Origin: a virus
Virus record (IMG/VR): IMGVR_UViG_3300045988_079610
Strand: one strand, 5' to 3'
DNA: 64,000 nucleotides
The position numbers and the translations under genes are program-made. Below the pieces are notes generated by a model. It was not told the DNA's origin. It did not search any database and saw only the letters and a program-made list of their open reading frames with translations. Shown here piece after piece: positions 1,713-63,258 of this stretch (position 1 is its first letter; each line of letters starts with the position of its first letter).

Positions 1713-1725
1713 TTCTACGGGGGGG
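1713..1725 (-). repeat. GC-motif copy 1, G-rich form on + strand: TTCTACGGGGGGG (intergenic, 46 nt upstream of ATG 1771)
   Basis: Read directly; G7 run at 1719-1725. Confidence 0.95.
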
Positions 1726-1770
1726 CTTTAATGTTTTATTAATATTCATATTACTAATAATGTTAAAGCT

Positions 1771-2457
1771 ATGGCTAGTATTGCAATGATGGTTAGTGAA
1801 TTAGCTCATTCTTTAGGTCAACCTAATAATCATGCTCTTAGAGAAAATCTTAAACTTCTAGTAATTCAAACTCGTAATGAAGTTATTAGAAGAAGTTATG
1901 AGAATCATGGTTATGTAGATAAAGGTCTTACTCAAAGATTTAGAGTTACTTTAACTGACGTTAATGATGGTGATATAGTTCTACCAGATTCTATTAAAGA
2001 TTTTGTTGCTATTGATAAAATTAAAAGAACTACTGAAAAAGTTCCTAGACCTGTTAGACTTACTAATAATCTTCCTTTTGATAGAGTTAGTTCTGTAGGT
2101 TATGCTAATAATAGAGAATTTCCTTATATTAAAGAAACTACTGCTAGATTTAGAAATTCTGTTCCTGGTCTTTGTGGTGCTATTAGTTACGATTATATTA
2201 ATGAATATATATATCTATATCCCCCCCGTAGAAGAGCTTTTGATTTACAACAAATAGTTATTGAGAGTTCTTTTGAACATCCAAATGAAATATCATTTAA
2301 TAATGGAGAAATAGATAATAATAATCTTATATATGATGATAATGAATATCTTATACCTGAAGATATGTATGGAACTATAAAAGATATTATTTATAAACGT
2401 GATTTATTAAATCAACATCGAGAAACTGATGAAACTCCTAATAGTATTAAATTTTAA
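1771..2457 (+). CDS. hypothetical virion/tail-associated protein
   Basis: 228-aa ORF, tightly packed with the following + strand genes. No recognisable motif. Confidence 0.75.
   Translation: MASIAMMVSELAHSLGQPNNHALRENLKLLVIQTRNEVIRRSYENHGYVDKGLTQRFRVTLTDVNDGDIVLPDSIKDFVAIDKIKRTTEKVPRPVRLTNNLPFDRVSSVGYANNREFPYIKETTARFRNSVPGLCGAISYDYINEYIYLYPPRRRAFDLQQIVIESSFEHPNEISFNNGEIDNNNLIYDDNEYLIPEDMYGTIKDIIYKRDLLNQHRETDETPNSIKF
2221..2234 (+). repeat. GC-motif copy 2, C-rich form on + strand: CCCCCCCGTAGAAG (codes PPRRR)
   Basis: Read directly; C7 run at 2221-2227. Confidence 0.95.
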
Positions 2458-2460
2458 GTT

Positions 2461-3402
2461 ATGAGTATTAAAGATAAACCAATAGGACTTCGAGAGTATT
2501 ATGAAAATGCTAAAGACATTTATACTAAAAAGAAAGAAGTTGCTCAATTAGATAATGATAGACTTGAAGAAGTTATAACTAGACAAAGAAATGATATTGT
2601 TAAATATTTGGATTTGTATAAACTTCCTATAGTTGATTATCCTGAATTTAGAGAAAATAAATATATTAATGGAAGGCTTTTAAATGCAGCTATAGGTCTA
2701 TATCAAGATAAAAGAATTGGTGCAGAAGTTAAAGGTGCTTGTTTTAAACTTTTAGTTTTAGCTAAAAATCAAGAAAAATATTATAATAATATTAAGATTA
2801 TTAATAAAGCTAACAAAGTACTTTCTCTTACTTATAAACAATATATTGCTATCATTAGAACCTTTTATAAAGAAGTTCATAAAAAACTTATTCTTGATGG
2901 TTATGGTTATGTATTTCATGGAACTATAGGTTGGGTTTGTATTAATAGAGTTCTTAATACTGATAAATGTCGTAAGATGCTTGACTTTGCAGCTACTAAT
3001 GCTAAAAAGAAAGAACTTAAAGCTAAAGGTATTAGACTTTATAATAAAGAAGAAGCTGAATGGTGTAAACGAAATAATATTCCTTATGATGGAGTTGATT
3101 ATAAAGTTTATAAGAAAGATGAATGTTGGTATCAATTTTGTCTAATAGGAAGTACTTGTAAAAATGCTTTAAGTTTATCTTTTACTCCTGCTGATAGTCG
3201 TCCTACAAAATATCATGGTGTAACCAATGATGATTTTATTAAACTATGTAATAATAATAAAGATAAGATTTTAAATTTAGATTTAGATATTAAAACTAAA
3301 CTTACTCTTTGTCTTACTGTTGATAAAATTCTTTATACTAAATTTATTAGAAATGAAAATCAAACAACAAATAAAGTTAGACCGACTTATAGGAAAAGTT
3401 GA
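2461..3402 (+). CDS. hypothetical protein (structural module)
   Basis: 313-aa ORF starting 3 nt after the previous stop. Confidence 0.75.
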   Translation: MSIKDKPIGLREYYENAKDIYTKKKEVAQLDNDRLEEVITRQRNDIVKYLDLYKLPIVDYPEFRENKYINGRLLNAAIGLYQDKRIGAEVKGACFKLLVLAKNQEKYYNNIKIINKANKVLSLTYKQYIAIIRTFYKEVHKKLILDGYGYVFHGTIGWVCINRVLNTDKCRKMLDFAATNAKKKELKAKGIRLYNKEEAEWCKRNNIPYDGVDYKVYKKDECWYQFCLIGSTCKNALSLSFTPADSRPTKYHGVTNDDFIKLCNNNKDKILNLDLDIKTKLTLCLTVDKILYTKFIRNENQTTNKVRPTYRKS

Positions 3403-4102
3403 TAATGACTTTAATATAAGTGAAAGTGATTGGATTCCTAGAGTTGCTGCTTGGACTATAGATGCTCTTTCTCAAATGAAATTACTTCCTATGGAACGTA
3501 AGAAAAGAACATTAGATGTTAAAGAAAGAATAGCTATATTTCCTTGTACTCTTAATGCTAAAGAAATTAAAGTATATGATTCCAATGGTTGTGAAATAAG
3601 AGAACTTAATAGTTCTACTTGTAATTGTAATTCAGGACTAAATAGTAATACTACTAATAGTTCTGAAATTGCTGTTTTTAGACCTGATGGTAATAATCCA
3701 GTAAATTCTATGAAAGTAGGAGGAATTGTAAATCCTGATAGTAATAGAAATTTTGTTATTGCTGGAAATAATATAGAACTTAATTTTGATACAGATAGTA
3801 TTGTAGTAGAAAGTTATGAAACTGCTACATATTATGATGAATATTATGATTGTGAAGTTCCTTATATATATGAAAATGGAATTTTACTTGAAGCTCTTGC
3901 TTGGTATATACTTTTCAAATATCTTAGTAGAGGAAGTACTCATCAAGTTTATAGTTTGAAAAGTAATAGTCCTGTTACTAATCCTTTTCTTCAGTGGAAT
4001 AATCTTAAAAGTAAAGCTATTGCTTCTGTTAAGAATGAAATTTATAATGCTGAAGGATGGAGAAATTTCTTTTATAATTCAACTTTTGACCCAAGAAGAT
4101 AA
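3320..4102 (+). CDS. hypothetical protein (structural module)
   Basis: 260-aa ORF. A likelier start is ATG 3353 (MKIKQQ...), which still overlaps the upstream gene by about 50 nt. Confidence 0.7.
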   Translation: MIKFFILNLLEMKIKQQIKLDRLIGKVDNDFNISESDWIPRVAAWTIDALSQMKLLPMERKKRTLDVKERIAIFPCTLNAKEIKVYDSNGCEIRELNSSTCNCNSGLNSNTTNSSEIAVFRPDGNNPVNSMKVGGIVNPDSNRNFVIAGNNIELNFDTDSIVVESYETATYYDEYYDCEVPYIYENGILLEALAWYILFKYLSRGSTHQVYSLKSNSPVTNPFLQWNNLKSKAIASVKNEIYNAEGWRNFFYNSTFDPRR

Positions 4103-4104
4103 TT

Positions 4105-9268: not shown

Positions 9269-12200
9269 ATGGTATATCAATTAAAAAGAACTCAAACTAA
9301 TAAGAGACCTCAAGCATTTTGGGGTTCTATTATTCCTTCAGCATTAAGTTTTGTTGGAGGTCTTATTACTAGTAGTCAGCAAGCTAAAGCTCAAAGACGA
9401 GCTTTGGAAGAACAACAAAGACTTGCTAAACAACAACTTGATATTAGTAATCAAAATCAATTAGCTAGTACTCTTAATAATTATGCTCTTGCTCAACAAT
9501 CTTATGATGATAAAGATTATAATCTTAAATATCGTATAGGAGGAGTTAAAAGACTCGGTGGCAGAAATATTATTATTACTGATGGAGGTAATGCTAAGAG
9601 AATAGGAAACAACACATATCTTCTACGGGGGGGTTCTCACGAAGATATTAATGAAACTGGTCAAACTGGCATAGGTATTAATGTTGGCGGTAATGAAATT
9701 GAAGCTGAAGGTGGTGAAGTTGCTCAACGTAAGGGCAACTCTTTGCGTATATATTCAGCTCAACCTATTCTTGGTGGTATGAGTCCTGCTCAAGCCATAA
9801 TGAGAGGATATAATAAAGATAGAGTATTTAACGCTCAACAAAGATTTAAGAAGAATAATGGTATTAAAGATGACGGTAATCAACAAAGAAATGGTGGTTT
9901 AACTTCTAAAGATAGAGGTTCTTCTAAACATCCTTATCCTTCTGTATCATCTAAAGATTTTGCAGGTGGTAATAGAAGTTATCCTATTCCTACTAAAGCT
10001 GATGCTATTGATGCTTTAAGACTTGCTGGTCTTCATGGTAGAAGTGATGTTAGAAGTAAAATATATAGTAAGTATCCTGAACTTAGAAAGAAAGCTGATT
10101 TTGGTACTGTGGTTCCTGGTGGTATTCCTGGTACTGATAGTTATAGAGGTAGAATATATAGTGGATATGATATTAGTCCTTTTAATCTTCTTAATATTTT
10201 AAATTATTTAGATAGAGCTGCTGGATTTGTAGATGAAAACGGTAATAGTAGATATATTACTGGTATAGCTCCTGTTTCTGGTAGAGGTAAAATGTCTAAT
10301 AAAGCTTTGCTTAGACAAGCTAGAAGAGCTAATAATAGAGCAATGATGAATCCAGTAAGAGAAAATAGTTCTACTATTTCTGTTAGTCCTGTAAAACCTG
10401 GTTATACTTGGAATGGTACTATAGTTACAACTCGTTCTCCTTATGCTGGTAGAGGTATGCAACGATTAGATATGAGAGGTTTTAAACCTTATAATGCTTC
10501 AGTTAAAGAAACTCCTACTTATTCATATACTATTCGTCAAGATTTCAATCCTAATAATAATATTAATCTTGGATTAGGTAGTAGACTTAGAGGTAATGTT
10601 GAAATTGGAATTGGAGCTGCTAAACAAAAAATAAATAAATTTATAAATAAAACTAAAGTTAAAGTTACAAATCCCAATACATATAGAACTAAAACTGGTT
10701 TTGAAGAAAGATACAATCCTACTTTAGGAGCTTATGAACAATATAATACTTATAAATTAAAACCATGGGTTAAAGCTACTGCTGGTGCTGTTGGAACTGC
10801 TGGAGCAATTGGATTAGGAATAGGTTTAGCTAAAACAAAAAATAAAAATGAGAATAATAAAGCTCAACTCGATGCTTATGGCAAACCTATTTCTCCATAT
10901 ATAGCTAGACCTCAAGAACCAGCTAAACCTCAAGCTAAGAAAGTTGTTTCTGCTCGTAAAGATACAACTAGAAGAGATACTACTAAGCAAGTTAATAAAG
11001 TAGTTAAACGTCAAGTTAGAACAACTCCTCAATATACAGGTAATACTACTAAAGGTAATTATCAATTACATGATGGAGAAACTAAAGTTATTAATGGTAT
11101 TAAATATACTCGTATAGGAAATACTATTATTAATCATAAGACAAATGTAGGTTATATTTATGATAAGAATGGTAATTATACTGGTCAAGCAGATTATTCT
11201 AAAGTAGGTAATTTTAATCAAGCATTTGATGCAGCTAGAGCTGCTGGTAGAAATCAATTTATTTATCGTGCTGGTAAATATAATAATTATTCTACTGCTA
11301 AAGAAACTAATGCTAAGAAAGAAGCTTTGAATAGAAGAATTGGTGCTAGACGTATTGCTAAGAGAATTGGAGGTCTTACTAACCCCCCCGTAGAAAGGTT
11401 TAAATGTGGTGGTCGTGTAAGACCTAAAGCAGGAAATGGTATGCTTGCTACTATTTATAGTTATGGTACTAATATAAGAAGACTTCCTTCATTTGCTCCT
11501 ATAGATATTACTCCAAATTTTAAACCTGTTTCTGTTCCAACTAATACAAAAACTCCTTTTGATCCAAATAGTGTTCCTTATTTAGGAAATCAATCTACTT
11601 TTAAACCTGCTACTCAAGATTATATAGGTTTAGGTATTGATACTCTTGCTGCTTTAGGTAGTGGAATGTTTACTCGTTCTGCATATAATAAAATGAATTT
11701 TGACTATGCTTTACCTAATTATGTAGATGAATCTCCAATAGCATTTGATACAACTTATCATAATGAAGCTCAACGTGCAAATATAGAACGTAATAGACTT
11801 AATGCTCGAAATTTAATTAGAGGTAATACTGCTAGTGCTCAAACATCTTTAGGTCGTATGCAACAAAGTGATGTAGATGCTATGATGGAAACTAATAAGC
11901 TTCTTGATGAAAAGAGTAATAAAGAAGTTGAACTTAGAAATCAAAATGCTGCAAATGAGCAACAAGTTCGTGCTAGAAATGCTGCTGCTAGAAATCAATA
12001 TTATCAGAATGTTGCACAAATTAAAAATGCTGCAATCGAAGCTAAAAATAATGCTGAACTTGCTAAGGCTCAAAGTATTGGAGCAGATTTAAGTGGTCTT
12101 TCTCAAGCATGGACTAATTTTGCTGGTAGTGTTGAAAGTAGATATGATGCTAGACAAAATGAAATAGCTGCTATATCTAGTGCTAATAGTCCATCTGTTG

Positions 12201-18500: not shown

Positions 18501-21500
18501 TAAAAATAACATTATTGCTAAGATGGCACAAAAAGCTATTGATGAAGGTAATGCTTCTGCTCAAACTAAGAATGCTGTCAAGGAAAATTCTACAAGCAAT
18601 TTAAATCCCTCAGAATCCACTGAAAACGAATCATCGAATAATCAATCAACCGAAACATCTGAATCGTCTACGCAAGAGAAAAATAAGCAACCAGCCAATT
18701 TACAACAATCAGAGGAACAACCGCAAACAGAAAATCAATTTATCAAAGTTACAGATAATGGAGTTGAAACTAATGAAACTCAAGATACTGCTGATGGTCG
18801 TATAGTACAATCTGTTGATGAAGAAACTGGAGAAGTTATAAGAAATATACTTCCTAAAGATGACACAGAAAAATCTCAGTCTGATTATTATAAAAATAAT
18901 AATCTTTTTGATTATGAGGATGGAGTAAGTCTTATTGATAATAATTATAAAATTCAAGCGTATCCTGCTCTTGATAATGATGGTAATTTAATTAAAGGTA
19001 GACTTGTTAAACAAACAACTGAAGGAGAAGCAAAAGCTCCAACAGAAACAAAAGAGGAAAGTCCTTCTACGGGGGGGATTAAACAATCTCAAGATACAAC
19101 TTCTACTTTTGATGCTGAACAATTTACACATGATATACAATCTGCTTTTGCTGGTCATGTAGATTATATGACTTCAGATGAAGATATAAATAAAGTAGCT
19201 GATGCTATTAAAGCTAAAATAGCAGAAGTTCGTCCTGAAATAAAATCTGAATATGTAAATGCTGAAGTCGATAAATATGTTGAACAACTTAAAAAAGCTT
19301 TTGATAAAGTTCGTCAATATAAAGGTATAGAAAGAGCTGCTGGAAATCTTAATGTTGTTGCTCAAACAGAAAGTTTTGCTGCTAAAGTAGAAGAAACAGA
19401 TACTACTGATTATTCTCCTATGTTTAGTAAAGCTATGGATGTTTTTGTTCAAGAGTATGCTAAAACTCTTCTAGTACCTTATAGTGAAGGTAAACAAATT
19501 ATTAATATGCAAGATATTCTTCGTATTTGTCAAAGCACTTACGGTAATGATTCTACTCAAGCTACAAATCTTTATAATTTATGTAAAGCGTATCTTCTTA
19601 GTGAAGATGGTAAAAAGAAATATATTATTGAAGATTTAGAAGAAATTAATAAAGATACTGTTGTAGAAAATTCATTTAAAAATCCTATAACTAGACAAAC
19701 TGAATTTGTTGGTGGTTTTTATTCAGCTAGAGTTGATATTAAAAGTTTTATTGATTTAATGAATGATAAAGATATTACTTCTGATGCTGATAGAAAAGCT
19801 TATTTTGATGTTATGGATAAGCTTCAACCAGGAGATAAAGTTAAACTTTATGCTGTAAATGATGAATTAATAATTAAAGGTGTTGATAGTAATGGTAAAG
19901 AAATTACTATTGGTAGAATGCCAAAGCCTGTTACTATTGATGATGGAAAATATGTTGCATTTAATGAAGGTTGGGGAACTGATGTTAAAATAGGACCTAA
20001 TGGAGAAGTTCAAAGTGAACTTAGAGATTTATTTAAAAGTATATTTCTTAATGACGGTTCTAATAAAACATTAGATGATTTACGACAAATAATTGTAAAT
20101 GCTAGTGTAAATGGACTTAGTAATAAATATATTGCTGCTTTTCAAAATAATCCTCTGATTGCTAAACTTGTTGATTATAGCATTAAAGAAAAAGATTTTT
20201 ATAAACGTAAAGTTTATATTGATAAAGAAGGTAATGCTGATTATAGAAATATGCTTAATCATCTTGTAAAATTATGGAGATTTTGTAATATTAGTGATGC
20301 TAAACTTAATATTAAAAATAATGTTACTAATATTAATGTAGGTTTAAATCTTTGGTTTAATAAGATGTATAATAGTTATAATAATATAACTGGTGTTACA
20401 AGTAATCAAGAAGTTACTGTTAGTAAAATAACTGAAGGTAAAATGCACAGAAAACTTGCATTTGTTACTGATGAAAATAAATCAGAACTTCCTCATCCTA
20501 AAGAAGGTATTAAAGATTTAAGTTCTGCTAGAATTGCAGTTGTAGATCCTCAGAATCCTACAAGCATGATTATTTCTGGTAAAGAACATATATCTTCTAA
20601 TGGATGGAAAGCTGGTTCTACTATTATGGCTGTATTTAATCGTAATGGACAACCTGATTTTGTTAAAGCTATTGGAGTTAATTTTGATAATAACGAAGAT
20701 AATGATTCTATTACAAAAGTTGGTAGAGCAATAGTTAAAGAATTTCAAAGACATCTTAATAATTTCTTTGTTGATGGCAATTTAAATGAATTAGAGATAT
20801 TCTTTAATAATTTAATTAGAAATAAAGGTAATGTTGGAGTTGTTCCTCTTCTTGCTCCTAAAAGCAGTATTGTAACAGTAGGTCAACAATCAGTTCACAA
20901 TAATAAAACTAATACAGATGACCATCATCTTCAAATAAATTTTTATGATAAAGCTAATGATATTAATAGATGGATAAGAATTTATAATGTTTCTTTTGGT
21001 AATACTAAAGCTAGAAAAATTATAACTTCTGATGGTTTTAGATTTGATTATAATAATCAAGCTAAAAGTAGTTCTGGTAATCCAGCTTATACTATTATTA
21101 GTATGTTACAATCTTTATGTAATCTTAATATAGATGCAGAAGGTATTAAAATGGATAATCAAGCTACATCTTCTAATACAGGTTTTATTACTAAAAAGGA
21201 TGGTAAAATTCATTTAGATATTGGTGATGAAGATGGAGTACATGAAGAATATGATAGTTATAATGATTTTTTAGTAAATAATAATTTTATTAGAGTTAAT
21301 ACTTTTATTGATGATAATGGTAGTAACTATGATAGAACTTCAGATGTGCAAGGAGCTTCTCAAAATATGTATATTGATATTCCTATGTCAACTATACAAA
21401 CTTCAACTAGTCAACAAACAAAAGGTTCTACAGAAAGAATAGAACGTGGAACTGATAAAGATAAATATGATAATCTTAAAGCTTCTCTTGAGTCAGATAG

Positions 21501-22656
21501 TACTGCTAAAGGTGAAGATTTAATGAGATTAGCATTTGGAAATGAATGGGTTGATAGATTTAATGAAGAAGCTAAGACTGATGGAATATTTGAAAGTTTG
21601 TTTCCTAGTAAAATTTATTATGATGATATAAATTGGTATTCTGATAATGGAGTAAGAGGAGCTATAGCTAGAACAAATAGTAGAGGTAATAATAGTACTT
21701 ATGACCATATATTTAGAGATGGACGTAAAACTGTTAGAATACATGGAAAAGGTAATACTGTTGTTGGTTCTAGACTTCTTAATATGCTTGCAAGTAAAGA
21801 TTCTTTTAGAAGAAATACTGGTGCTCGTAAACTTATTCATGAACGTATACATCAAATACTTGCAGAACCTACTATAGAAAAACTTAATGCTTTATCTAGT
21901 ATTGCAGATGTATATAAACAAGTAAAATCTGCTTTAGCTGATGAAGGTAAAGCTATTAAAAGTCTTGATGCTAATGATTCTAAAAATAAAGCTAGAATTG
22001 CATTATATAATGATGTAAAAAATACTCTTTCTTATAAAGATGGAGATATAGCTCTTGAAGAATTTATAGTTGAATCTATGACTAATTCAAGTATTGCTAA
22101 GTTTATGGATAATATTAAAGTTTCTGATGTTGGCGAAGCTAAAGGTGAAACTCTTCTTAGTAAAATTATGAAGTTTATAGCTAAATTCTTTGGATGGAAT
22201 ATTAGTGATGATAGTCTTCTTAGAAAAGAATTTAATATACTTAGCAATCTTGATGGAACTTCTCATAATGAAAATCAAAAAGAAATTATAGAAGAAGTTC
22301 ATAAAGATAATAAAGAAGAAGATGAAGATAATAAGTTAGAAGATGAAAATGAACCGACTAACCCCCCCGTAGAAGAGTCTACAGATACTTCATCTAAAAC
22401 TCCTGAAATAAGAGAAGGAGGTGAACAAATACTTAGTGATTTAAATGATAGTGCTTTCGATGACCTTCTTCTTCCTGAAGATGATTATAGTCTTGAGGCT
22501 AATGTAGAAGAAAGTAATTTAGATTATAAAAATCTTACAGATAATCAAACTCATGTTACTTCTCTTCCTCATTTAATTTATTCTCTTGATGAAAATAATA
22601 GAGCAAATATGCAAAAACTTGTTGATAGCGGATGGGCTTCAATTAAATGTTCTTAA
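15598..22656 (+). CDS. giant virion/ejected protein (2352 aa) with an HExxH zincin-like motif
   Basis: 7-kb ORF with N-terminal hydrophobic segments and an S/T/E/Q-rich linker (nt about 18585-18730). HERIH lies at nt 21838-21852 (H2081), and the C-terminus is acidic. Its position directly upstream of the virion RNAP gene matches other crAss-like phages. Confidence 0.85.
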   Translation: MNTDNVFKNSGYIISNPNYNPKTKKGRSQSPTLHVIGVDDAGGNGAADVFASNVNDMWAMGDTSKYQRYGITPNRISPNLDKELADAQSNWAKAGNALAQTVISEIGLGTALGITDLFDMIGSKIGILDDNYKNPVSEFLEKKQEEFREFAPIYTTPGVDIANGGLTDFGWWMSNMPSIASSLTLLIPSTGITKGLSWLGKATKATSFTRKAIRATSKAIGNKNLYRWANKASTIEKANAMTELGLNAALSRTMENYQEARGVYNDMYAEAVDKLNNLTPQQYQQYIDNNPNIFKDKDGNDKVDTSDRDAVAKFVAKESADRDFLQNYWNIGWDMLQLYGLKNMFRGGKLPELGSSKAKIRRAHKDMMKYADKLKGTNTAEIVEEIKELNKSLPFMTKLGHKIEDYTYGNAMTIGAEASEGAEEAWNYISQMEGMHTGRLLLGTDKPSRWDNRFNDYITSPQLWESAFWGVLGGVVFQNVGGLFKQVGYNISKHAKDKKAAKKAETTGETKLAPEWSLFDDMPDVKRGIESVYARQVNLMNLKEKQELIKSGKNPYDSSKEITKEEAPIYEKMVSDDYIVNLALQSYNNGTFDMTREYFANDNVRKGMVENGVISEEDSHKFQQEVLAKLDKTKEQYEDETVRIDALSGEGDRKENIPMEYIQIAATHNVKTLNNIEDMTARQAALIKEFDDAFAAIPDGKIDKNLPYRQMMDFQVKVSYLNKLEDDKRKLEEQHKIDPNIGTQVSLDNINKRIDNVKKEIAGDFSNERASYTMFALNELLAHKRTQFKEIDANIEKVFHDLENGNAKAFGKYFGNEEYNPDKDTIDSIIQEYKQLGKRYDDVMTNLEQLGTTADSYRNAVMLGEFINEQNSNMIATRKEFDDYMNVLNNTINETRIKAIDEAVNNITSLTDKYDLDIIDKILLANKNGKPIDDLTSDFEEGDKAKINEALSVINFSNQANIGIYEDIKNNIIAKMAQKAIDEGNASAQTKNAVKENSTSNLNPSESTENESSNNQSTETSESSTQEKNKQPANLQQSEEQPQTENQFIKVTDNGVETNETQDTADGRIVQSVDEETGEVIRNILPKDDTEKSQSDYYKNNNLFDYEDGVSLIDNNYKIQAYPALDNDGNLIKGRLVKQTTEGEAKAPTETKEESPSTGGIKQSQDTTSTFDAEQFTHDIQSAFAGHVDYMTSDEDINKVADAIKAKIAEVRPEIKSEYVNAEVDKYVEQLKKAFDKVRQYKGIERAAGNLNVVAQTESFAAKVEETDTTDYSPMFSKAMDVFVQEYAKTLLVPYSEGKQIINMQDILRICQSTYGNDSTQATNLYNLCKAYLLSEDGKKKYIIEDLEEINKDTVVENSFKNPITRQTEFVGGFYSARVDIKSFIDLMNDKDITSDADRKAYFDVMDKLQPGDKVKLYAVNDELIIKGVDSNGKEITIGRMPKPVTIDDGKYVAFNEGWGTDVKIGPNGEVQSELRDLFKSIFLNDGSNKTLDDLRQIIVNASVNGLSNKYIAAFQNNPLIAKLVDYSIKEKDFYKRKVYIDKEGNADYRNMLNHLVKLWRFCNISDAKLNIKNNVTNINVGLNLWFNKMYNSYNNITGVTSNQEVTVSKITEGKMHRKLAFVTDENKSELPHPKEGIKDLSSARIAVVDPQNPTSMIISGKEHISSNGWKAGSTIMAVFNRNGQPDFVKAIGVNFDNNEDNDSITKVGRAIVKEFQRHLNNFFVDGNLNELEIFFNNLIRNKGNVGVVPLLAPKSSIVTVGQQSVHNNKTNTDDHHLQINFYDKANDINRWIRIYNVSFGNTKARKIITSDGFRFDYNNQAKSSSGNPAYTIISMLQSLCNLNIDAEGIKMDNQATSSNTGFITKKDGKIHLDIGDEDGVHEEYDSYNDFLVNNNFIRVNTFIDDNGSNYDRTSDVQGASQNMYIDIPMSTIQTSTSQQTKGSTERIERGTDKDKYDNLKASLESDSTAKGEDLMRLAFGNEWVDRFNEEAKTDGIFESLFPSKIYYDDINWYSDNGVRGAIARTNSRGNNSTYDHIFRDGRKTVRIHGKGNTVVGSRLLNMLASKDSFRRNTGARKLIHERIHQILAEPTIEKLNALSSIADVYKQVKSALADEGKAIKSLDANDSKNKARIALYNDVKNTLSYKDGDIALEEFIVESMTNSSIAKFMDNIKVSDVGEAKGETLLSKIMKFIAKFFGWNISDDSLLRKEFNILSNLDGTSHNENQKEIIEEVHKDNKEEDEDNKLEDENEPTNPPVEESTDTSSKTPEIREGGEQILSDLNDSAFDDLLLPEDDYSLEANVEESNLDYKNLTDNQTHVTSLPHLIYSLDENNRANMQKLVDSGWASIKCS
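19065..19077 (-). repeat. GC-motif copy 5, G-rich on +: TTCTACGGGGGGG (codes PSTGG)
   Basis: Read directly; G7 run at 19071-19077. Confidence 0.95.
22362..22375 (+). repeat. GC-motif copy 6, C-rich on +: (ACTAA)CCCCCCCGTAGAAG(AGT) (codes NPPVEE)
   Basis: Read directly. It is identical over 22 nt to the reverse complement of copy 15. Confidence 0.95.
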
Positions 22657-37299: not shown

Positions 37300-37317
37300 C
37301 CTGCCCGTAGAAAGACT
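37300..37317 (+). repeat. GC-motif copy 9, interrupted variant: CCTGCCCGTAGAAAGACT, starting 1 nt after the RNAP stop codon
   Basis: Read directly; 16/18 identical to copy 11. Confidence 0.85.
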
Positions 37318-37405: not shown

Positions 37406-37414
37406 ATATTTCAA

Positions 37415-39512: not shown

Positions 39513-39729
39513 TTTCTATATCATTAAAATTAATATTTAAAATTCTAATTATCTCTTCTTTTATTTCAAGTTTATCTTTATATACATTTTCAGGATTATA
39601 ATTTATACTTCCGTATTGAATTTCATTATCAACATCATTATTAACAATAGTTCTAAAAGATTCTTCTCCTTCATGTTTTTTATGATAAACATAATCTACA
39701 AGTATATCAATATATCTATTATCTATCAT
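39496..39729 (-). CDS. hypothetical protein
   Basis: 77-aa ORF with operon packing. Confidence 0.55.
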   Translation of the reverse strand: MIDNRYIDILVDYVYHKKHEGEESFRTIVNNDVDNEIQYGSINYNPENVYKDKLEIKEEIIRILNINFNDIENESIK

Positions 39730-40252
39730 TTTTATTTTTATTTTTAAAATTATAAACTATAGCAGAATATTCATTAACTACATAATGAGTACTATTATTA
39801 ATTTGTTTAATAGTAGTATTAGCCTGTTCTTTAAATCCTTCACAACCAATAGCTTTAATCATACAAGGATTTAATAAATACCAATCTCTACTAGCTTCAA
39901 CAGTTTCAGGAAGACCTTCAATATCTCTCCATTTAATTATAGCACCAACATTAACTAGTTCTTTAATAGCTGCATTAATTGTTTTTGGGTCTTTAGTTCT
40001 ACATATAGGAGAATCAGCTATATTTCTAGAATTAAACTTAATGCTAGTCTGACTAGGTAACATAGTTTCGCTAATATAGCAAGCTATATCACAAGCAGTC
40101 TTACTACAATATCTGTGAATAATAGTAGAAACAAATTTACCAGTATCTTTAAATACTTCATAAACTACATCTACTTTAATATCACTTCCTTTAAGTTTAT
40201 TCTTAGCTTTATGTTCTTCCATAATAGAATTATAATTATTACCTCTAATCAT
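39719..40252 (-). CDS. hypothetical protein, possibly winged-helix DNA-binding
   Basis: 177-aa ORF. The segment ...TINAAIKELVNVGAIIKWRD... looks like a wHTH recognition helix plus wing. This is weak evidence. Confidence 0.6.
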   Translation of the reverse strand: MIRGNNYNSIMEEHKAKNKLKGSDIKVDVVYEVFKDTGKFVSTIIHRYCSKTACDIACYISETMLPSQTSIKFNSRNIADSPICRTKDPKTINAAIKELVNVGAIIKWRDIEGLPETVEASRDWYLLNPCMIKAIGCEGFKEQANTTIKQINNSTHYVVNEYSAIVYNFKNKNKNDR

Positions 40253-40420: not shown

Positions 40421-40570
40421 TTACTGATAACTATTACAAACATACTCATTATCTTTAAAACTAGCAATATTATCAATAGAATAATTACTATAATAAAGAT
40501 AATTTAATAATTCAGCCTCTCTACGGGGGGTTTCTAGTTTATCTAGTACTTCTAAAACTTCTAATGACAT
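40421..40570 (-). CDS. possible small ORF (49 aa), below the track threshold
   Basis: ATG at 40570 and TAA at 40421-40423, product MSLEVLEVLDKLETPRREAELLNY... It contains motif copy 10. Coding status is uncertain. Confidence 0.3.
   Translation of the reverse strand: MSLEVLEVLDKLETPRREAELLNYLYYSNYSIDNIASFKDNEYVCNSYQ
40517..40530 (-). repeat. GC-motif copy 10, G-rich on +: CTCTCTACGGGGGG (G6)
   Basis: Read directly. Confidence 0.9.
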
Positions 40571-40602: not shown

Positions 40603-40620
40603 CCCGCCCGTAGGAAGACT
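40603..40620 (+). repeat. GC-motif copy 11, interrupted variant: CCCGCCCGTAGGAAGACT, 6 nt beyond the stop of the 40626 gene
   Basis: Read directly. It is inverted relative to copy 10, which lies 72 nt away. Confidence 0.85.
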
Positions 40621-45375: not shown

Positions 45376-46017
45376 TTATTTACTTTTATGTTTAACAAAC
45401 TCTTTTCTAGAAGCATAATCTTCAGGAGACATAGCAATTACATTTTCTTTATGTTCACTAGTAACAGGAATTTCTTTATTATCAGCGGATAAATTATATA
45501 CATATCCATCTTTATCTTTACAAAGATGCTCAAAACCATAAGCATCTATAATTTCAAAAGTAACATCTTTTCTACTAGTTTCTTCAATAAGAATTAATTT
45601 ACTTGTCTTAACAAGAGTAGAAATATCAATAAAAGATGTTTCTAGCTCCCCCGTAGAAGGTATCGTAGGTTCACCTTCTAACCAAGCTAATAACATATTG
45701 CAATAATTACCTAAATCTTGAATAGTATCAAACATAGTTTCATCTTCAACATTAGGATTATTATAACCATTAAAATCTTCTTCTATAAAATGAATCAAAC
45801 GATTAAGTTTATCATACATTCTAGCTAGACCATATCTATAGCCTAATTTATTACAACCTTTATTGAAAGCATTATCGTAATCAGCATTTTTTTTAGCCAT
45901 AAGATTAAGCATCTTATTTTGCTGGTCACGTAAAGCAACAACTTCAGGAGTAATAAGTTCTTTTGGAACTACTCCATTAAGAGCAGCTTTCCAATAATTT
46001 AAATCATTTTCTGTCAT
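45376..46017 (-). CDS. DUF1599-like (nucleotide-modification-associated) protein
   Basis: ...KKNADYDNAFNKG...GYRYGLARMYDKLNRL... resembles the DUF1599 core K-x-x-D-Y-G ... R-x-x-D-K-x-x-R. Needs an HMM check. Confidence 0.45.
   Translation of the reverse strand: MTENDLNYWKAALNGVVPKELITPEVVALRDQQNKMLNLMAKKNADYDNAFNKGCNKLGYRYGLARMYDKLNRLIHFIEEDFNGYNNPNVEDETMFDTIQDLGNYCNMLLAWLEGEPTIPSTGELETSFIDISTLVKTSKLILIEETSRKDVTFEIIDAYGFEHLCKDKDGYVYNLSADNKEIPVTSEHKENVIAMSPEDYASRKEFVKHKSK
45645..45660 (+). repeat. GC-motif copy 12, variant GCTCCCCCGTAGAAGG (codes PSTGE on minus strand)
   Basis: Read directly; C5 run. Confidence 0.85.
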
Positions 46018-48365: not shown

Positions 48366-48379
48366 TTCCTACGGGGCGG
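48366..48379 (-). repeat. GC-motif copy 13, interrupted variant, G-rich on +: TTCCTACGGGGCGG, 14 nt beyond the stop of the 48393 gene
   Basis: Read directly. Confidence 0.8.
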
Positions 48380-50437: not shown

Positions 50438-50893
50438 TCATCTAGTTTTAAATATTAAAACTCTATCAGGTTTACCTAATACACCATAAGCATAACGACA
50501 AACTTCTGCTATATTACTACATTCACAACTTCTATATCTTTTAATAGGACTTCTACAAGTATGAGTTTTTAAATCATAATCTATAGGAATATGTACTATT
50601 TTATTAAAATGTATAAGTTCTTGTAACTGATAATAATCATCAGAGTTTATATTAAAATCTATATGACCATAACAAATAACATTACCTCTACCATTAGGAA
50701 TATTAAAAGTTTTGTCATTTCTAGTTATTTTTATAGCTTCTCCTTTATCTAATTTAATTTCCTCTTTTTCTGTTATATATGTCATTACGATGTCAATACC
50801 ATCACGTTCAGTACGGCAAATCAAAGTTTGATAACCTTTCATAATAGGCATCGGAATTACATAGATTTTCTTTTCTGTATCGTAGTTCGACAT
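50438..50893 (-). CDS. hypothetical protein
   Basis: 151-aa ORF. The listed start overlaps the primase ORF by 86 nt. Internal ATGs at 50851, 50842 or 50785 are alternatives. Confidence 0.6.
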   Translation of the reverse strand: MSNYDTEKKIYVIPMPIMKGYQTLICRTERDGIDIVMTYITEKEEIKLDKGEAIKITRNDKTFNIPNGRGNVICYGHIDFNINSDDYYQLQELIHFNKIVHIPIDYDLKTHTCRSPIKRYRSCECSNIAEVCRYAYGVLGKPDRVLIFKTR

Positions 50894-52037
50894 AACTAAG
50901 AGTTTCTTTAATAAATTTATCTATTTCATCTTTAGTGTATTTATCATGCAAATCTGCAAAGTCTTTACATTCATAATTACTAAGACCAAATTCGCCACGA
51001 GTAATAAATAAATAAGGAATATTATATGTTTCTAAAAGATATTCAGCTCCTTCTCTACCAGTTCTGTCAAAATCTAGAAAACTAAGTATCATTCCATCAT
51101 TAGATAATTTCTTTTTTATCCATTCATATTCGTTAGCTTTAAGTCTATAATTCTCACTAGGAAGATTAATCACTCCTATTTTTAGAAGTTTTCCAGTCCC
51201 CCCGTAAAGAGGCTTGTTTGTTAAATGACTTCCTAAACTAAGTCTATCTTTACTACTTTTAGTAATTATAATATAATCATAATCATCTAATTCAAGATTA
51301 GGTAGACCTTCAAGAACATTACAATTAGTAATAAACTTTAAATCAATATGTCTATTCCTAAGAGGAAAATATAGTTTAATTAAATAAATACCTTGTTTAT
51401 TTTGTCCAAGCATATAAGCATAACAAGGGTCTTTACTAACATATCTATATTTAGGTTCAGGATTAGAACTTCTATTGATATAATATTGGTCAACAGGAAT
51501 TACAAAATGAGTATTAAGATAAGCAAGATTTACATTCCATTTATCCCATATTTTTTTATCTTCTTTATTCCATGAACGTGGAACAAGTTCAATAATAGCT
51601 TTACGATCTTTACTTTTAAATAAAGCATTTTTTATATCATCATCTGTAGAATAATCATGTTCACGATTGTCTATAACATCTGCAAATGTTCTATAAATAT
51701 GTTTTAATATAAAATAAAAATCTTGTTTGTTATCAGTACTAATAGGTCTTTCATAAGCAATACTAAGAACATAAGCTACAACTCCATATACATCTTCAAA
51801 GAAACCAAAACCTCCAAAATCTCTAACTTTAAGTCTACCTTTTCTATTATAAGCAATACCCATACTACCATCAGTATCATCATCTCTAAATACAGATTTT
51901 ATGAGATTATTATGTTCAATACAATTTTGAACAGTTTCTATAGGAATATTTAGATATTTGCTTACAATATCTTCTTGACTTATACGAGATTCAATAAATG
52001 CTTTAGTTAAATGAGCAGTATTTATATTACGTTTCAT
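50808..52037 (-). CDS. DNA primase (toprim/DnaG-like), putative
   Basis: 409 aa with a toprim-like DxD segment ...ILSFLDFDRTGREGAEYL... It sits in the replication module next to the SSB-like and PolB genes. Confidence 0.5.
   Translation of the reverse strand: MKRNINTAHLTKAFIESRISQEDIVSKYLNIPIETVQNCIEHNNLIKSVFRDDDTDGSMGIAYNRKGRLKVRDFGGFGFFEDVYGVVAYVLSIAYERPISTDNKQDFYFILKHIYRTFADVIDNREHDYSTDDDIKNALFKSKDRKAIIELVPRSWNKEDKKIWDKWNVNLAYLNTHFVIPVDQYYINRSSNPEPKYRYVSKDPCYAYMLGQNKQGIYLIKLYFPLRNRHIDLKFITNCNVLEGLPNLELDDYDYIIITKSSKDRLSLGSHLTNKPLYGGTGKLLKIGVINLPSENYRLKANEYEWIKKKLSNDGMILSFLDFDRTGREGAEYLLETYNIPYLFITRGEFGLSNYECKDFADLHDKYTKDEIDKFIKETLSYVELRYRKENLCNSDAYYERLSNFDLPY
51196..51212 (+). repeat. GC-motif copy 14, variant GTCCCCCCGTAAAGAGG (C6, GTAAAG; codes PLYGG on minus strand)
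   Basis: Read directly. Confidence 0.8.
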
Positions 52038-55778: not shown

Positions 55779-57191
55779 TTAATCTACAATACAATAATCA
55801 GAATTATTATCAATTTTAACATCTATATCTTTTTTATTAACAATAACATGATTAGATGATAGTTGTTTATCATTGATTTCTTTTTCTTCTAATGTATTTT
55901 CACAATAAAGACTATATAATATAATAGGTATATTGAACTTACATTTACTTAATCTATATATATAAGATTTTATATCATCACATAGACTTGACGTAATTAT
56001 TAAAACATCTACATCTATATTAAGTTCTTTATCAGGACTATTTGTTGTAGATATAATGTTTATCTTTCCAAGATTAAATAATTGTTGGATAAGTTTCTTT
56101 TGGTTCGTTACACCCATTATTTTTTGCTTACCTTTCTTAGCTCCAGTTTTATAATAAATAGGATTACCATCTTTATCTATAGCTGGAATTGATTCTAATT
56201 TGTCATGAAAACTTTTACATATTTCTTTATTATATTTAATGTTTATATTATTAGTTAATTCATCTGCAAAATCTGCAAACTTATTTATTATAAGAATCTT
56301 TTTATCTTTATAACTATCAATAATATCTATAATAGCATTAATCTTATTTGAATAATTAGCAAGAAGTCTAGCTCTTTTTCTAATCATTTCATAAGTAGAA
56401 TTAGCTCTTTCTTTTATTGCTATAGGATTATAAAGATTATCTATTTGTCGATTATATTCTGTACTCATATCTAGATATTCATTCCAACCATTATCTCTAG
56501 CAAGTTTATCACAATATGCCATACTAGAAGCATTATTTGTGTTATTACCAGACATAGCAATTTTTATATTATCTAGACCTCCAAATATATTAAGTGACAT
56601 TCTAATATTATCATTATAATATTGAAGAAGTTTAGCATCATTAGTATCATCTTTAATAGTGATAGGAATACGATACTCTTCTACGGGGGGGTTAGTACGA
56701 ATATTATCGACATCATTTTGCTTAAACTCTTTAATAATAGGACAACAAGAATAAAAACTATCTTTAGTTCTACCATCAAGAGATTTAGTAATAATAACTA
56801 ATTTATATATGCTTTTTTCTAATATTCCTAAATGAACAAAAGTAAAACTAATAGGATTGTAAATAATAGTAAGAGTAGGTCTATACAAATTAATATTATC
56901 AGCAACCCAACTATCAGTTAATACATGAATTTGTCCTTTATTAATCAACTTTAGAAAAATACTATCATAATTATTCTTTTGATTAGTAAGATATTCTTTG
57001 ATATAATCTTTATCTTCAAAGTCTTTAACTAGAATAAGTACATTACAAGTTGGACTTCTATTAAATAATCTAGGAAGAAGAAGATAAATAGGTCTAACAC
57101 TATCTAAAGGATGAGGTATTAGAAAACTTCCATTACCATTACGAGCATTCCATCTTTCGATAGCATCATTAAACATTTCTTCTTGTGTCAT
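55779..57191 (-). CDS. hypothetical replication-module protein (possible helicase-like ATPase)
   Basis: 470-aa ORF immediately downstream of PolB. I could not read clear Walker motifs. Confidence 0.7.
   Translation of the reverse strand: MTQEEMFNDAIERWNARNGNGSFLIPHPLDSVRPIYLLLPRLFNRSPTCNVLILVKDFEDKDYIKEYLTNQKNNYDSIFLKLINKGQIHVLTDSWVADNINLYRPTLTIIYNPISFTFVHLGILEKSIYKLVIITKSLDGRTKDSFYSCCPIIKEFKQNDVDNIRTNPPVEEYRIPITIKDDTNDAKLLQYYNDNIRMSLNIFGGLDNIKIAMSGNNTNNASSMAYCDKLARDNGWNEYLDMSTEYNRQIDNLYNPIAIKERANSTYEMIRKRARLLANYSNKINAIIDIIDSYKDKKILIINKFADFADELTNNINIKYNKEICKSFHDKLESIPAIDKDGNPIYYKTGAKKGKQKIMGVTNQKKLIQQLFNLGKINIISTTNSPDKELNIDVDVLIITSSLCDDIKSYIYRLSKCKFNIPIILYSLYCENTLEEKEINDKQLSSNHVIVNKKDIDVKIDNNSDYCIVD
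56676..56691 (-). repeat. GC-motif copy 15, G-rich on +: CTCTTCTACGGGGGGG (codes NPPVEE on minus strand)
   Basis: Read directly; G7 run at 56685-56691. Confidence 0.95.
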
Positions 57192-59468: not shown

Positions 59469-60028
59469 ATAATATTAATTTCATATCCATTATAATTATT
59501 ATCTTTACTAGCATTATACCATTTAATTAGATGATTACAAAATTCTTTATATTTATTATCATCTATGTATTTAATAAAAGGAGAATAACTAACACAATAT
59601 CCTCTAATATTACCATTATCCTTAGTAATGTATAGTTTATCAGTTTTATTACTTATATCTGTTATAGATAAAAATAGTTTAGCTGCATCACCAAGTAATA
59701 ATATTTTTACAGCATGAGTATTAACAATATCTCTAATTGTATGTACAATACATCTATTAATAATATTATTATTTAGAGGACATTTATCAGTCAATTTACA
59801 TCTAATAAGTGGAACTATAAAATAATCATTTAACCCCCCCGTAGAAGGACTTAATGCTTCATTTATTATTTCCACATATTTACTAAACGTCATTCCTTTA
59901 TTCTTATAAGCATCATAATCAACATTAGGTACAACTATTATTTTACCATAAAGAGGATTACCAACACCTTTAAGACAATGACATTTATCATTAAATAGTC
60001 TTAGAGGACAATCTTTACATACATTCAT
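59465..60028 (-). CDS. uracil-DNA glycosylase-like (family 4-like, divergent)
   Basis: N-terminal Cys pattern CKDCPL...C..C followed by GVGNPLYGKIIVVPN. It sits immediately upstream of PolB, as in other crAss-like phages. Confidence 0.5.
   Translation of the reverse strand: MNVCKDCPLRLFNDKCHCLKGVGNPLYGKIIVVPNVDYDAYKNKGMTFSKYVEIINEALSPSTGGLNDYFIVPLIRCKLTDKCPLNNNIINRCIVHTIRDIVNTHAVKILLLGDAAKLFLSITDISNKTDKLYITKDNGNIRGYCVSYSPFIKYIDDNKYKEFCNHLIKWYNASKDNNYNGYEINII
59834..59852 (+). repeat. GC-motif copy 16, C-rich on +: CCCCCCCGTAGAAGGACTT (codes PSTGG on minus strand)
   Basis: Read directly; C7 run at 59834-59840. Confidence 0.95.
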
Positions 60029-61986: not shown

Positions 61987-62522
61987 TTCTTTCCATCTTT
62001 ATTAGCTTTAAACCATTCAAATTCATCATCATCTAGAAGTCCTTTATATCTATAATCATATCCGTTTATAGTAACAAGATTTCTAAATTTAAATTGAAGA
62101 ACATTATTGATTTTAACAATCCATCCTCTAACTATCCAATTAGGAGCAAAAGGAACATATTTATCAGGATTATAATTACCAAATACTATTTGACTTTCAG
62201 TTCTAACAAGACTTAAATATCCATATTTAGTTTTATCTCTAGTAAATATAGTTCTAAATCGTCTAATATCATAAGATTCTTCAGTAAAAGGAATATTAAG
62301 AGATTTAGCAATATCGGTAATTTCAATTATATCTGTATTTCCAAACAGACGTTCATTAAAATCATAATATTGAACAAAACAATAATATTTTCCATCTATA
62401 AGAACAACTTTACCATTAACTAACTTAGTAAGTTTCTTAGGAGGAATTTCTTTAGGCTCAACTCTTTTAGTAGGTTTAACTACTTTAAGTTTAAGTTTTA
62501 CATTACTAAGATTTACTCTCAT
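61983..62522 (-). CDS. hypothetical protein
   Basis: 179-aa ORF. Confidence 0.65.
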   Translation of the reverse strand: MRVNLSNVKLKLKVVKPTKRVEPKEIPPKKLTKLVNGKVVLIDGKYYCFVQYYDFNERLFGNTDIIEITDIAKSLNIPFTEESYDIRRFRTIFTRDKTKYGYLSLVRTESQIVFGNYNPDKYVPFAPNWIVRGWIVKINNVLQFKFRNLVTINGYDYRYKGLLDDDEFEWFKANKDGKK

Positions 62523-62788
62523 TTCTTCTTATTAGTTAGTTTATGTTCTTTACGAATCTTTTTAGCTTCTCTTGCAGAAGTATTAGCTTCATCAAATTTT
62601 AAATTAGAAGCTTTAACACCATGTTCATAAGTAGCAACATAACCACAATATTTTGTTAGAAAATCAATCTTACCCCAAGTATGAATACCTACAGCAGATT
62701 TATCACCAATAATAATGTGATTACCATTAATACGAGCAATACGTGAAACACTTCTTAAATCCTTTCTTTCGTCATGTTTTTTAGCCAT
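62519..62788 (-). CDS. hypothetical basic protein
   Basis: 89-aa ORF with a K/R-rich C-terminus. Confidence 0.6.
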   Translation of the reverse strand: MAKKHDERKDLRSVSRIARINGNHIIIGDKSAVGIHTWGKIDFLTKYCGYVATYEHGVKASNLKFDEANTSAREAKKIRKEHKLTNKKK

Positions 62789-62848
62789 TTTACAAAAAGT
62801 TTAATTGTTAATAATATTAATTACATCATCAATAAGATGAATATTAGT

Positions 62849-62903
62849 AGTTTGACTCGGTTTCGCACCATAAGCCGTAGTATAAGCTACACTTAGTCAA
62901 ACT
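62849..62903. other. 9-bp stem (AGTTTGACT/AGTCAAACT) enclosing a 37-nt relatively GC-rich loop
   Basis: Read directly. The loop contains AGCCGTAGTATAAGCTAC (inner GTAG/CTAC pairing), a degenerate motif-like CCGTAG about 45 nt from copy 17. Confidence 0.5.
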
Positions 62904-62916
62904 TAAAGTGACATTA

Positions 62917-63258
62917 TTAAGCTCCCCCGTAGAGGAACTTAACAATGTCAACATTTTCTTCTTCTATTTTCTTACAAGCATTAAGAATAACATCAATACC
63001 TTTATGTCTAACTTTAATTATATCCATAATTACAGTAATCATATCATGTTGACTTAATCTCATAAGATGATAAATTGTTTTAAAACCTTTACGAGTATTA
63101 AGAGGAAAGTTATAAGGAATAATATAACCTCTACGATGTGGAGGATATTTATAATTAGCTTTAGAAATATAATTTCCACAACTTATAACTTCTCCTCCAA
63201 ACTCAGGTTTAGCACAATGTTTTAAATCATAATTATAAGCACAAGTACTACATAACAT
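62917..63258 (-). CDS. hypothetical Cys-rich protein
   Basis: 113-aa ORF. Its last codons (KFLYGGA-stop) are supplied by motif copy 17. Confidence 0.6.
   Translation of the reverse strand: MLCSTCAYNYDLKHCAKPEFGGEVISCGNYISKANYKYPPHRRGYIIPYNFPLNTRKGFKTIYHLMRLSQHDMITVIMDIIKVRHKGIDVILNACKKIEEENVDIVKFLYGGA
62921..62940 (+). repeat. GC-motif copy 17, variant GCTCCCCCGTAGAGGAACTT
   Basis: Read directly; C5 run. Confidence 0.85.

Follow-up and report, generated by a model that had tools for sequence, protein, structure and literature searches.

A 64-kb stretch of viral DNA (IMG/VR record IMGVR_UViG_3300045988_079610; the whole stretch analysed is called the window below), a segment of a crAss-like genome of the Intestiviridae type with 27.8% G+C, carries 17 convincing copies of the GC-rich word yTAR-CCCCCCC-GTAGAAG-R, ten on the plus strand and seven on the minus strand. 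The word is under selection at the nucleotide level, both within and outside genes. It is specific to phages, cellular genomes being without it, and all gut Intestiviridae genomes examined carry a variant of their own. These properties are best read as those of a phage-specific, strand-specific cis signal with a putative co-evolving phage reader, a reading that is better supported than any particular chemistry at the sites.

A dispersed GC-rich word

With up to three mismatches allowed, the pattern CCCCCCGTAGAAG matches the window 19 times, against 1.20 +/- 1.03 matches (maximum 4) in 100 dinucleotide-preserving shuffles. Chance had already been excluded in an initial annotation made from the letters of the window, and these counts agree. 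The matches at 53161 and 54108 are without a C run and look like chance, and so were excluded from the 17. Long C or G runs belong almost entirely to the word: 14 of the 15 runs of at least five lie inside CCCCCCCGTAGAAG or its complement, the sole exception being CCCCC at 44159. Perfect runs of seven are found in ten copies (1719, 2221, 9627, 11383, 19071, 22362, 25987, 29727, 56685 and 59834), one more than the nine initially counted. The companion statement that the window holds no further run of six or more is right outside the motif but not inside it, where runs of six occur at 40525 and 51198, each within a copy.

A sequence logo of 86 non-redundant sites from the window and related contigs reads yTAR-C7-GTAGAAG-R-NN-T(T/G), and the base right after GTAGAAG is a purine at every site. 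The word is asymmetric and about 20 nucleotides (nt) long, with an information-rich span of ~18-22 nt. It is not palindromic; the logo has a weak CTA...TAG tendency around the C run in the window lineage and none in p-crAssphage, and a local hairpin within single copies was rejected on this ground.

Genes for tail, cargo and giant RNA polymerase (RNAP) proteins fill the plus strand of the window from 455 to 37299, and the replication module lies on the minus strand from 38910 to 63967. Twelve copies lie in genes and five between them. Motif search confirmed a copy at every coordinate initially listed, and with it the description of a dispersed motif present at least 17 times in both orientations, in several reading frames and also between genes. 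The copies are as follows.

1712..1725, minus strand: perfect copy (CCCCCCCGTAGAAG on the minus strand), intergenic, 46 bp upstream of gene 1771-2457
2221..2234, plus strand: perfect copy in gene 1771-2457 (plus), peptide PPRR
9620..9633, minus strand: perfect copy in gene 9269-12343 (plus), peptide LLRGG
11383..11396, plus strand: copy with GTAGAAA in gene 9269-12343 (plus), peptide NPPVE
19064..19077, minus strand: perfect copy in gene 15598-22656 (plus), peptide PSTGG, conserved in two related contigs (L003, L026)
22362..22375, plus strand: perfect copy in gene 15598-22656 (plus), peptide NPPVE
25980..25993, minus strand: copy with GTAGAGA in the RNAP-type gene 22738-37299 (plus; 4853 amino acids, aa), peptide LYGG
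29727..29740, plus strand: copy with GTAGGAG in gene 22738-37299 (plus), peptide NPPVG
37300..37313, plus strand: degenerate copy CCTGCCCGTAGAAA, intergenic, directly after the TAG stop of gene 22738-37299
40518..40531, minus strand: left arm of a close inverted pair (ACCCCCCGTAGAGA on the minus strand), intergenic
40603..40616, plus strand: right arm of the same pair (CCCGCCCGTAGGAA), intergenic
45646..45659, plus strand: copy CTCCCCCGTAGAAG in gene 45376-46017 (minus), peptide PSTGE
48366..48379, minus strand: degenerate copy CCGCCCCGTAGGAA, intergenic, between genes 46524-47990 and 48393-48743
51197..51210, plus strand: degenerate copy TCCCCCCGTAAAGA in the primase gene 50808-52037 (minus), peptide LYGG
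56678..56691, minus strand: perfect copy in gene 55779-57191 (minus), peptide NPPVE, conserved in relatives down to 67% flank identity
59834..59847, plus strand: perfect copy in gene 59465-60028 (minus), peptide PSTGG
62922..62935, plus strand: copy CTCCCCCGTAGAGG in the last codons of gene 62917-63258 (minus), peptide LYGGA*

The copy at 22362 equals the reverse complement of the copy at 56678 over 22 nt, an identity that had been pointed out before and is correct. The RNAP-type gene holds two copies inside and a third right behind its stop codon; this TAG doubles as the 'TAR' of copy 37300, and the related phage cr8_1 has a copy at the equivalent place. The 1.6 kb that follow, between the convergent gene blocks (37314-38909), are very AT-rich and without an open reading frame (ORF) of at least 100 aa; they hold a tRNA-Gln(TTG) at 37415-37486 and possibly a few short ORFs. 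This tRNA was the only Rfam family matched, and no family matched the motif.

Selection on the nucleotide sequence

The coding copies use five of the six combinations of frame and orientation, the sixth being one that would create a TAG stop. Their translations agree with the peptides initially listed: NPPVE three times, LYGG three times, PSTGG twice, and NPPVG, PPRR, PSTGE and LLRGG once each. They also draw on rare codons. In the window GGG makes up 1.9% of glycine codons and CCC 3.4% of proline codons, yet three of the 62 Gly-Gly pairs are encoded as GGG-GGG, and five of the 10 Pro-Pro pairs as CCC-CCC. Codon-preserving shuffles, a comparison suggested with the initial annotation, leave the five intergenic copies unchanged and yielded 1.1 copies against 10 observed at up to one mismatch, and 1.6 against 12 at up to two. 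Because of the varied frames, the rare codons, these shuffles and the protein changes that fit the lineage variants at orthologous sites (described below), the word must be regarded as selected as DNA; as had been proposed, what is conserved is the word in the nucleic acid rather than any peptide.

Lineage-specific words in related phages

The exact 14-mer occurs at ~60 places, in many contexts, in low-GC crAss-like contigs of IMG/VR. Beyond these contigs, conservation of the motif in related crAss-like genomes takes the form of lineage-specific words: each gut Intestiviridae genome examined has ~25-34 copies of its own variant. Dispersed words are also present in two gut Steigviridae.

p-crAssphage (Carjivirus communis): word ACYCCCCGTRGAGGATGGA, 19-20 bp, 33-34 copies
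cr8_1: word CCCCGTAAAAGGTATG / (CTAG)CCSCCCCGTAAAAGGTATG, 23-27 copies
crAss002: word TTCCCCC[G/A]TARAGGAG, 25-32 copies
Rudgehvirus jaberico: word CCCCTGTARAGGA, 20-28 copies
crAss001 (gut Steigviridae): word CTCCAGAAG, 27 exact copies against 0.36 expected
DAC15 (gut Steigviridae): word CACCAGAAG, 22 exact copies against 0.42 expected

The dispersed 9-mers of the gut Steigviridae have the form C[AT]CCAGAAG. CCCC-GT-AGAAG and CNCC-AGAAG differ by two bases, and it is plausible from this resemblance that the 9-mers belong to the same system as the Intestiviridae word. The crAss001 word contains a BpmI/GsuI site (CTCCAG).

Seven copies in p-crAssphage (BK010471; L127 and L128), around 6017, 28074, 28168, 44950, 58724, 93664 and 95860, have a ~25-nt GC-rich upstream extension of CGCTN repeats, for example CCGCTTCGCTTCGCTCCGCTAT; two of them lie inside genes. 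The extension is suggestive of a composite element longer than the word, or of a second module for binding.

Among 185,579 bacterial and archaeal genomes (596 Gb), TARCCCCCCCGTAGAAGR had only five single matches. They look like chance: their G+C content is 47-67%, unlike that of the phage, none belongs to Bacteroidales by its record title, and the contig among them that comes from a fecal metagenome-assembled genome has no similarity to the window. Since the word is nearly absent from cellular genomes, its putative reader is most likely encoded by the phage, and the word is not a host Chi-like signal. An origin of the word in the host genome was ruled out by the same absence.

Orthologous sites and concerted change

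Wherever a window site can be aligned, relatives with 66-97% flank identity have a copy there, the exception being site 2221, where the distant cr8_1 is missing the word. The copy at 9620..9633 persists in relatives whose flanks are 75-97% identical, among them cr8_1, where it takes the form of that phage's variant, and that at 22362..22375 is conserved in two contigs (L009 and L012) despite diverging flanks. Copies 45646 and 59834 have orthologous copies, as lineage variants, in the 14 relatives displayed. All 38 relatives fetched via the primase gene keep copies at conserved positions. In the primase gene itself, the site corresponding to copy 51197 falls on the same codon in 38 of 38 relatives, and five genera each have a variant of their own there:

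Window: CTT TAC GGG GGG, encoding LYGG
cr8_1: CAT ACC TTT TAC GGG GGG, encoding HTFYGG
p-crAssphage: TCC ATC CTC TAC GGG GGG, encoding SILYGG
Rudgehvirus: CTA CAG GGG AGT, encoding LQGS
crAss002: TTA CGG GGG AAT, encoding LRGN

The residues YGG, QGS and RGN thus track the DNA word of each lineage. The motif-bearing primase segment (~17 aa, ...HL..N..(F/L)YGG..., codons 265-285) is absent from the aligned primases of crAss001, DAC15 and phi14:2, and its absence from Steigviridae therefore places the site in a lineage-specific insertion or loop. That positions are kept while all copies of a genome share one variant argues for a co-evolving trans-acting reader and against recent mobility; concerted change of this kind points to a putative reader that co-evolves with its sites.

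The same sites bear on the suggestion, made initially, of a miniature mobile element such as a GC cluster or a miniature inverted-repeat transposable element, a suggestion that can be widened to a role as target site for the homing endonuclease HNH(-AP2), whose gene lies at 52034-52741. A GC-rich word in an AT-rich genome that leaves ORFs open does recall yeast mitochondrial GC clusters and the palindromic elements of Rickettsia, seven p-crAssphage copies have the (CGCTN)n extension, the segment around the primase site is missing from the primases of Steigviridae, and AP2 domains of HNH-AP2 proteins reportedly bind poly(dG)/poly(dC). The sites are, however, orthologous across five genera; no presence/absence polymorphism and no motif-length indel was seen among relatives at 82-98% identity, and neither target-site duplications nor terminal repeats were found at motif sites. 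This explanation is largely refuted.

The HNH gene itself (52034-52741, minus strand) encodes a genuine HNH_3 domain, with a sub-threshold C-terminal AP2/Arm-like match (E = 0.009). It lies directly upstream of the primase gene, with a 4-nt overlap, and looks like a recent homing-endonuclease insertion. No homologue was found by tblastn (E <= 1) within +/-10 kb of the primase in 38 motif-bearing relatives, whole genomes not being searched; the sole match for the protein at E <= 10 was a spurious one of 26 aa (E = 1.0, L089). The HNH(-AP2) protein was accordingly dropped as the reader of the motif, and its initial nomination as a candidate binder fails on the same distribution.

Orientation and spacing of the copies

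A uniform position weight matrix scan of seven genomes returned 187 sites, with ~0.5 false matches expected per genome. Strand counts are near-equal in all genomes scanned. The orientation of the motif is unrelated to the direction of transcription, both orientations being present in both transcription blocks of the window, and it alternates along the genome beyond chance in five of the seven genomes (p = 0.010, 0.025, 0.022, <0.001 and 0.003). Copies on the same strand come about every 5-8 kb and avoid one another. The coefficient of variation of same-strand gaps is 0.27-0.62, versus ~0.9 for random placement, and the evenness is significant on at least one strand in six of the seven genomes (p = 0.002 and 0.004 in the window; p < 0.0001 on the plus strand of p-crAssphage). 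Between the two strands placement is independent, except that close inverted pairs, which lie in intergenic regions, are more frequent than expected. Neighbours less than 1 kb apart comprise 39 inverted pairs (~24 expected, P = 0.001) and a single direct one (~23 expected, P < 0.0002), and all 15 pairs closer than 150 bp are inverted, 28-121 bp apart. These orientation and spacing rules, together with the family-wide distribution of the words, are additions to what was first noticed in the window.

An asymmetric word that is blind to transcription and evenly spaced on each strand would fit a single-strand process moving both ways, as in replication or recombination. The layout speaks against a promoter or start signal for a phage RNAP or a primer-synthesising polymerase, the former of which had been among the initial suggestions. 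A conserved specificity part of ~12 nt followed by a G run would suit such a signal, and the G-form ...CTTCTAC|GGGGGGG resembles T7-type promoters that start with a G run. Most copies are intragenic, however, and roughly every second one would give rise to antisense transcripts; for crAss-like phages, the middle and late promoters in the literature are sigma70-like and stand between genes, the early transcripts of phi14:2 share no motif, and no T7-like RNAP gene was seen in the window. A promoter is thus very unlikely, and the suggested RNAP signal does not survive the orientation data. A terminase cut site was ruled out as well: the experimentally defined ends of DAC15, with their 1842-bp terminal repeat, do not lie at motif copies.

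Inverted pairs and possible links to replication

The close pair of the window (40518/40603) lies between a DUF932 gene (40906-41961) and a winged-helix candidate gene (39719-40252), with an AT-rich spacer of 71 bp between the 14-nt cores. The region folds in single-stranded DNA as a long imperfect hairpin (z = -3.2), and the pair is conserved at the same place in relatives, 56-86 bp from start to start. In p-crAssphage, sites 22898/22923 form a near-perfect palindrome right after a stop codon. In the linear record of cr8_1 (MT774384; L129 1-130 and the end of L130), the two ends overlap slightly and fall exactly at the inverted pair 41-/113+; either the assembly broke at the palindrome or the end is a genuine one.

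What matters might be base-pairing between inverted copies, in mRNA or single-stranded DNA, whether for RNase III-type processing, for stabilisation or termination of transcripts or for the folding of a single-stranded replication intermediate. That every close pair is inverted with a hairpin-like spacer, that pairs less than 1 kb apart are as often convergent as divergent, that the window pair folds and that p-crAssphage has its palindrome just behind a stop codon would all agree with pairing. On the other hand, most copies are single and kilobases away from a partner, ribosomes would melt stems in translated regions, no T-run was seen behind the hairpins of paired sites, and there is no Rfam match. 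Complementarity alone also does not explain a precise asymmetric word of 20 nt that co-evolves genome-wide, and this explanation is distinctly improbable.

Close inverted pairs also occur upstream of both repL genes of p-crAssphage. Ori-Finder placed an origin of this phage in an intergenic region (PMC10983915), and the pair 95739/95860 lies in that same region. Equivalent pairs stand upstream of a homologous gene for a 177-aa protein in the window (40518/40603) and in cr8_1. Iterons and RepL-type origins have their repeats clustered beside the initiator gene; most copies of the word are dispersed, and the protein of the window is not detectably RepL.

39719..40252, minus strand: gene for a 177-aa protein, adjacent to the inverted pair; its homologue in cr8_1, gp_19911, in turn lies beside the equivalent pair

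The structure model of the 177-aa protein has a winged-helix-like topology, and its Foldseek matches are weak and of winged-helix type. No Pfam or PDB sequence match was found for it. Comparison with the RepL protein of p-crAssphage was not significant by BLASTP and gave a probability of 0.2% by hhalign, and homology to RepL was rejected. The protein is a possible candidate for the reader or an initiator.

These pairs give substance to an explanation by dispersed duplex sites for a phage DNA-binding protein, which might be a regulator that silences in the manner of stoperators, an initiator (RepL-like or winged-helix) that also has secondary sites, or the conserved IHF/HU-like pair as an organiser of the genome. 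An asymmetric word of ~20 bp fits a protein footprint, its lineage-specific concerted change implies a co-evolving reader, the inverted pairs lie upstream of the p-crAssphage repL genes and of the winged-helix-like gene in the window and cr8_1, and IHF-like genes are annotated in related genomes. Duplex binding gives no reason, however, why same-strand copies should be even and mutually repelling while opposite-strand copies are free, and variation of the pair spacing between 28 and 121 bp would be unusual if the binder were a dimer. Stoperators follow transcription and are mostly intergenic, whereas 12 of the 17 copies in the window are coding and their orientation bears no relation to transcription; a RepL-like initiator is not favoured by the dissimilarity of the 177-aa protein to RepL. 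On balance this explanation is unlikely.

Other genes and a possible phage-private Chi-like signal

Among the genes of the window are those of a Dda/RecD-like helicase (60517-61986) and a Gam-like protein, and relatives encode RecT and a PD-(D/E)XK exonuclease. The word might accordingly be a polar Chi-like or 'self' signal private to the phage, at which a tracking enzyme built from such components would stop or switch resection or degradation at intervals, on both strands. The signal depends on orientation, occurs in both orientations, is even on each strand with a small maximum gap and is G-rich on one strand, as known Chi sites are. Known Chi sequences, however, have 5-8 nt and are over-represented in the host, whereas this word has 14-20 nt and is absent from cellular genomes. 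To our knowledge, no phage-encoded Chi-recognising enzyme is known, and mosaic boundaries between relatives do not match the sites, so that a Chi-like role is quite improbable.

No repressor was identified among the genes of the window. A phylogenetic profile of genes present in motif-bearing genomes and missing from the marine relative phi14:2 returned only a dUTPase and a ~200-aa protein, and the latter was discarded as a discriminating gene when the profile search found a homologue in phi14:2 too. This ~200-aa protein is conserved in all Crassvirales compared (L128 43699-44274, L131 7873-8400, L139 8508-9107, L134 41676-42263) and belongs to no Pfam family. Its gene lies beside that of the large terminase in phi14:2 (g095) and beside that of the PD-(D/E)XK exonuclease in Intestiviridae; as a conjecture from this setting, it may encode the small terminase.

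The favoured reading and points against it

Of the initial proposals, a recognition site for a sequence-specific DNA activity stays the best reading in its general form, while the specific candidates offered for it fail. In the scheme that we favour, a phage-encoded factor that co-evolves with the word would read the motif, and the signal would be required at intervals along each DNA strand separately. The process would act on one strand and cross the genome in both directions, which would fit replication or recombination and not transcription or packaging. The sites would be processed either by a localized single-strand nick, of the sort known from T5 and from phiKMV-like and tf-like phages though in this case affecting both strands, or by site-specific priming of DNA synthesis, and the close inverted pairs beside initiator-like genes would act as double, origin-like sites.

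Site-specific strand processing of this sort, through localized nicks or priming sites, is our tentative preference, held at somewhat less than even confidence. In a broader form, the copies would be polar, lineage-private signals, even on each strand and read by a putative phage machine that tracks along single strands, and would organise the replication or recombination of a genome of 90-100 kb; we consider this possible but doubtful. Candidates for the tracking machine would be a primase with site specificity, a nickase and a helicase-nuclease under Chi-like control private to the phage. By analogy with promoters and their polymerases, or operators and their repressors, the specificity of the signals would diversify between lineages.

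Several observations weigh against strand processing at the sites. In the known nicked phages the motif is always on one strand only (PMC11780129, PMC3517423), whereas the crAss-like motif is on both. No comparable dispersed word was found in phi14:2 (L133 and L134), in which the same primase family is present. The spacing statistics are not independent between Intestiviridae genomes, which share orthologous sites, and there is no significant spacing or alternation in DAC15, nor significant spacing on one strand of Rudgehvirus. The depletion of close direct repeats could partly reflect deletion instability under the phage RecT/exonuclease system. A strictly polar origin is not favoured by the polarity of the pairs, which is convergent in 11 and divergent in 4 below 150 bp and 19 versus 20 below 1 kb. 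No shift in GC or AT skew was seen at oriented sites in four genomes, and identity breakpoints between relatives do not coincide with motif sites.

Novelty and significance

The word seems to be undescribed to date. Full-text searches, confined to open-access articles and bioRxiv and covering its sequences as well as nicks, repeats, motifs and promoters in crAss-like phages, found no description, and the motif is not mentioned in four papers on these phages (10.1101/2020.03.07.982082, PMC8375218, PMC10983915, PMC6712665). The initial remark that no such motif family was known from crAss-like phages is in line with these searches.

As the most abundant viruses of the human gut, crAss-like phages remain largely mysterious in their replication and persistence. 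The word offers a handle on an unexplained DNA transaction of theirs and on the protein that reads it, and the analogous words in cultured phages (crAss001, DAC15, crAss002 and Rudgehvirus) make its function directly testable. If the sites are nicks, they would be the first two-stranded, evenly spaced case and could help explain why phages nick their own DNA. In practical terms, the word gives a compact signature by which crAss-like genomes can be recognised and sub-typed, and its C7/G7 tracts in essential genes are likely hot spots for errors of sequencing and assembly and for frameshift mutations.

Comparison with known systems

The closest parallels are the motifs associated with nicks in other phages. 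In tf/Rembedalsseter and 60 relatives the word is WACTRTGAC, of which 45 kb contain 13 copies where 0.7 would be expected; it lies within genes as well as outside them and is conserved in the 61 phages although these share little nucleotide similarity (PMC11780129). The corresponding motif of phiKMV-like phages is CGACNNNNNCCTACTCCGG, and T5 is another phage with localized single-strand interruptions (PMC11780129, PMC3517423). Like these motifs, the crAss-like word is short, asymmetric, over-represented and phage-specific, is found in coding and non-coding DNA and is conserved at low nucleotide identity. Theirs lie on one strand, and the copies of the tf group are clustered towards one genome end, whereas the crAss-like copies are on both strands, even on each, and form close inverted pairs.

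In copy number, dispersal, asymmetry and lineage specificity of the word, the system also resembles the stoperators of Cluster A mycobacteriophages. These are binding sites of the L5 gp71 repressor, asymmetric, 13-14 bp long and present in ~20-35 dispersed copies, and they are lineage-specific and co-evolve with their reader. Stoperators point in the direction of transcription, sit mostly in short gaps between genes and are a feature of temperate phages that have a repressor, whereas here most copies are coding and blind to transcription, and no repressor is evident.

With the Chi sites of RecBCD and AddAB the word would share a polar, G-rich character, one active orientation and the need to be present along the DNA in both orientations. 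Chi is a shorter signal, abundant in the host and read by a host enzyme, in contrast to a word that varies between lineages and is absent from cellular genomes. The GC clusters and ori/rep elements of yeast mitochondria are likewise GC-rich islands in both orientations of a very AT-rich genome, some of them tied to replication priming. They are mobile, polymorphic and palindromic, whereas the crAss-like sites are orthologous, stable over genus-level divergence and non-palindromic.

T7 offers a further comparison through GGGTC and its other primase words and through its 23-bp class II/III promoters, of which there are ~17 per genome. In both cases a phage enzyme would read, on one strand, a specific word in which a G/C run marks the start point. 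T7 promoters are co-oriented and intergenic and its primase sites are frequent words of 5 nt, whereas the crAss-like words are long, rare, bi-oriented and mostly intragenic. Dispersed words specific to a reader are thus of a known kind in phages, represented by nick-associated motifs and stoperators; what is unusual in crAss-like phages is the evenly spaced layout on two strands and the diversification of the word at the level of genera.

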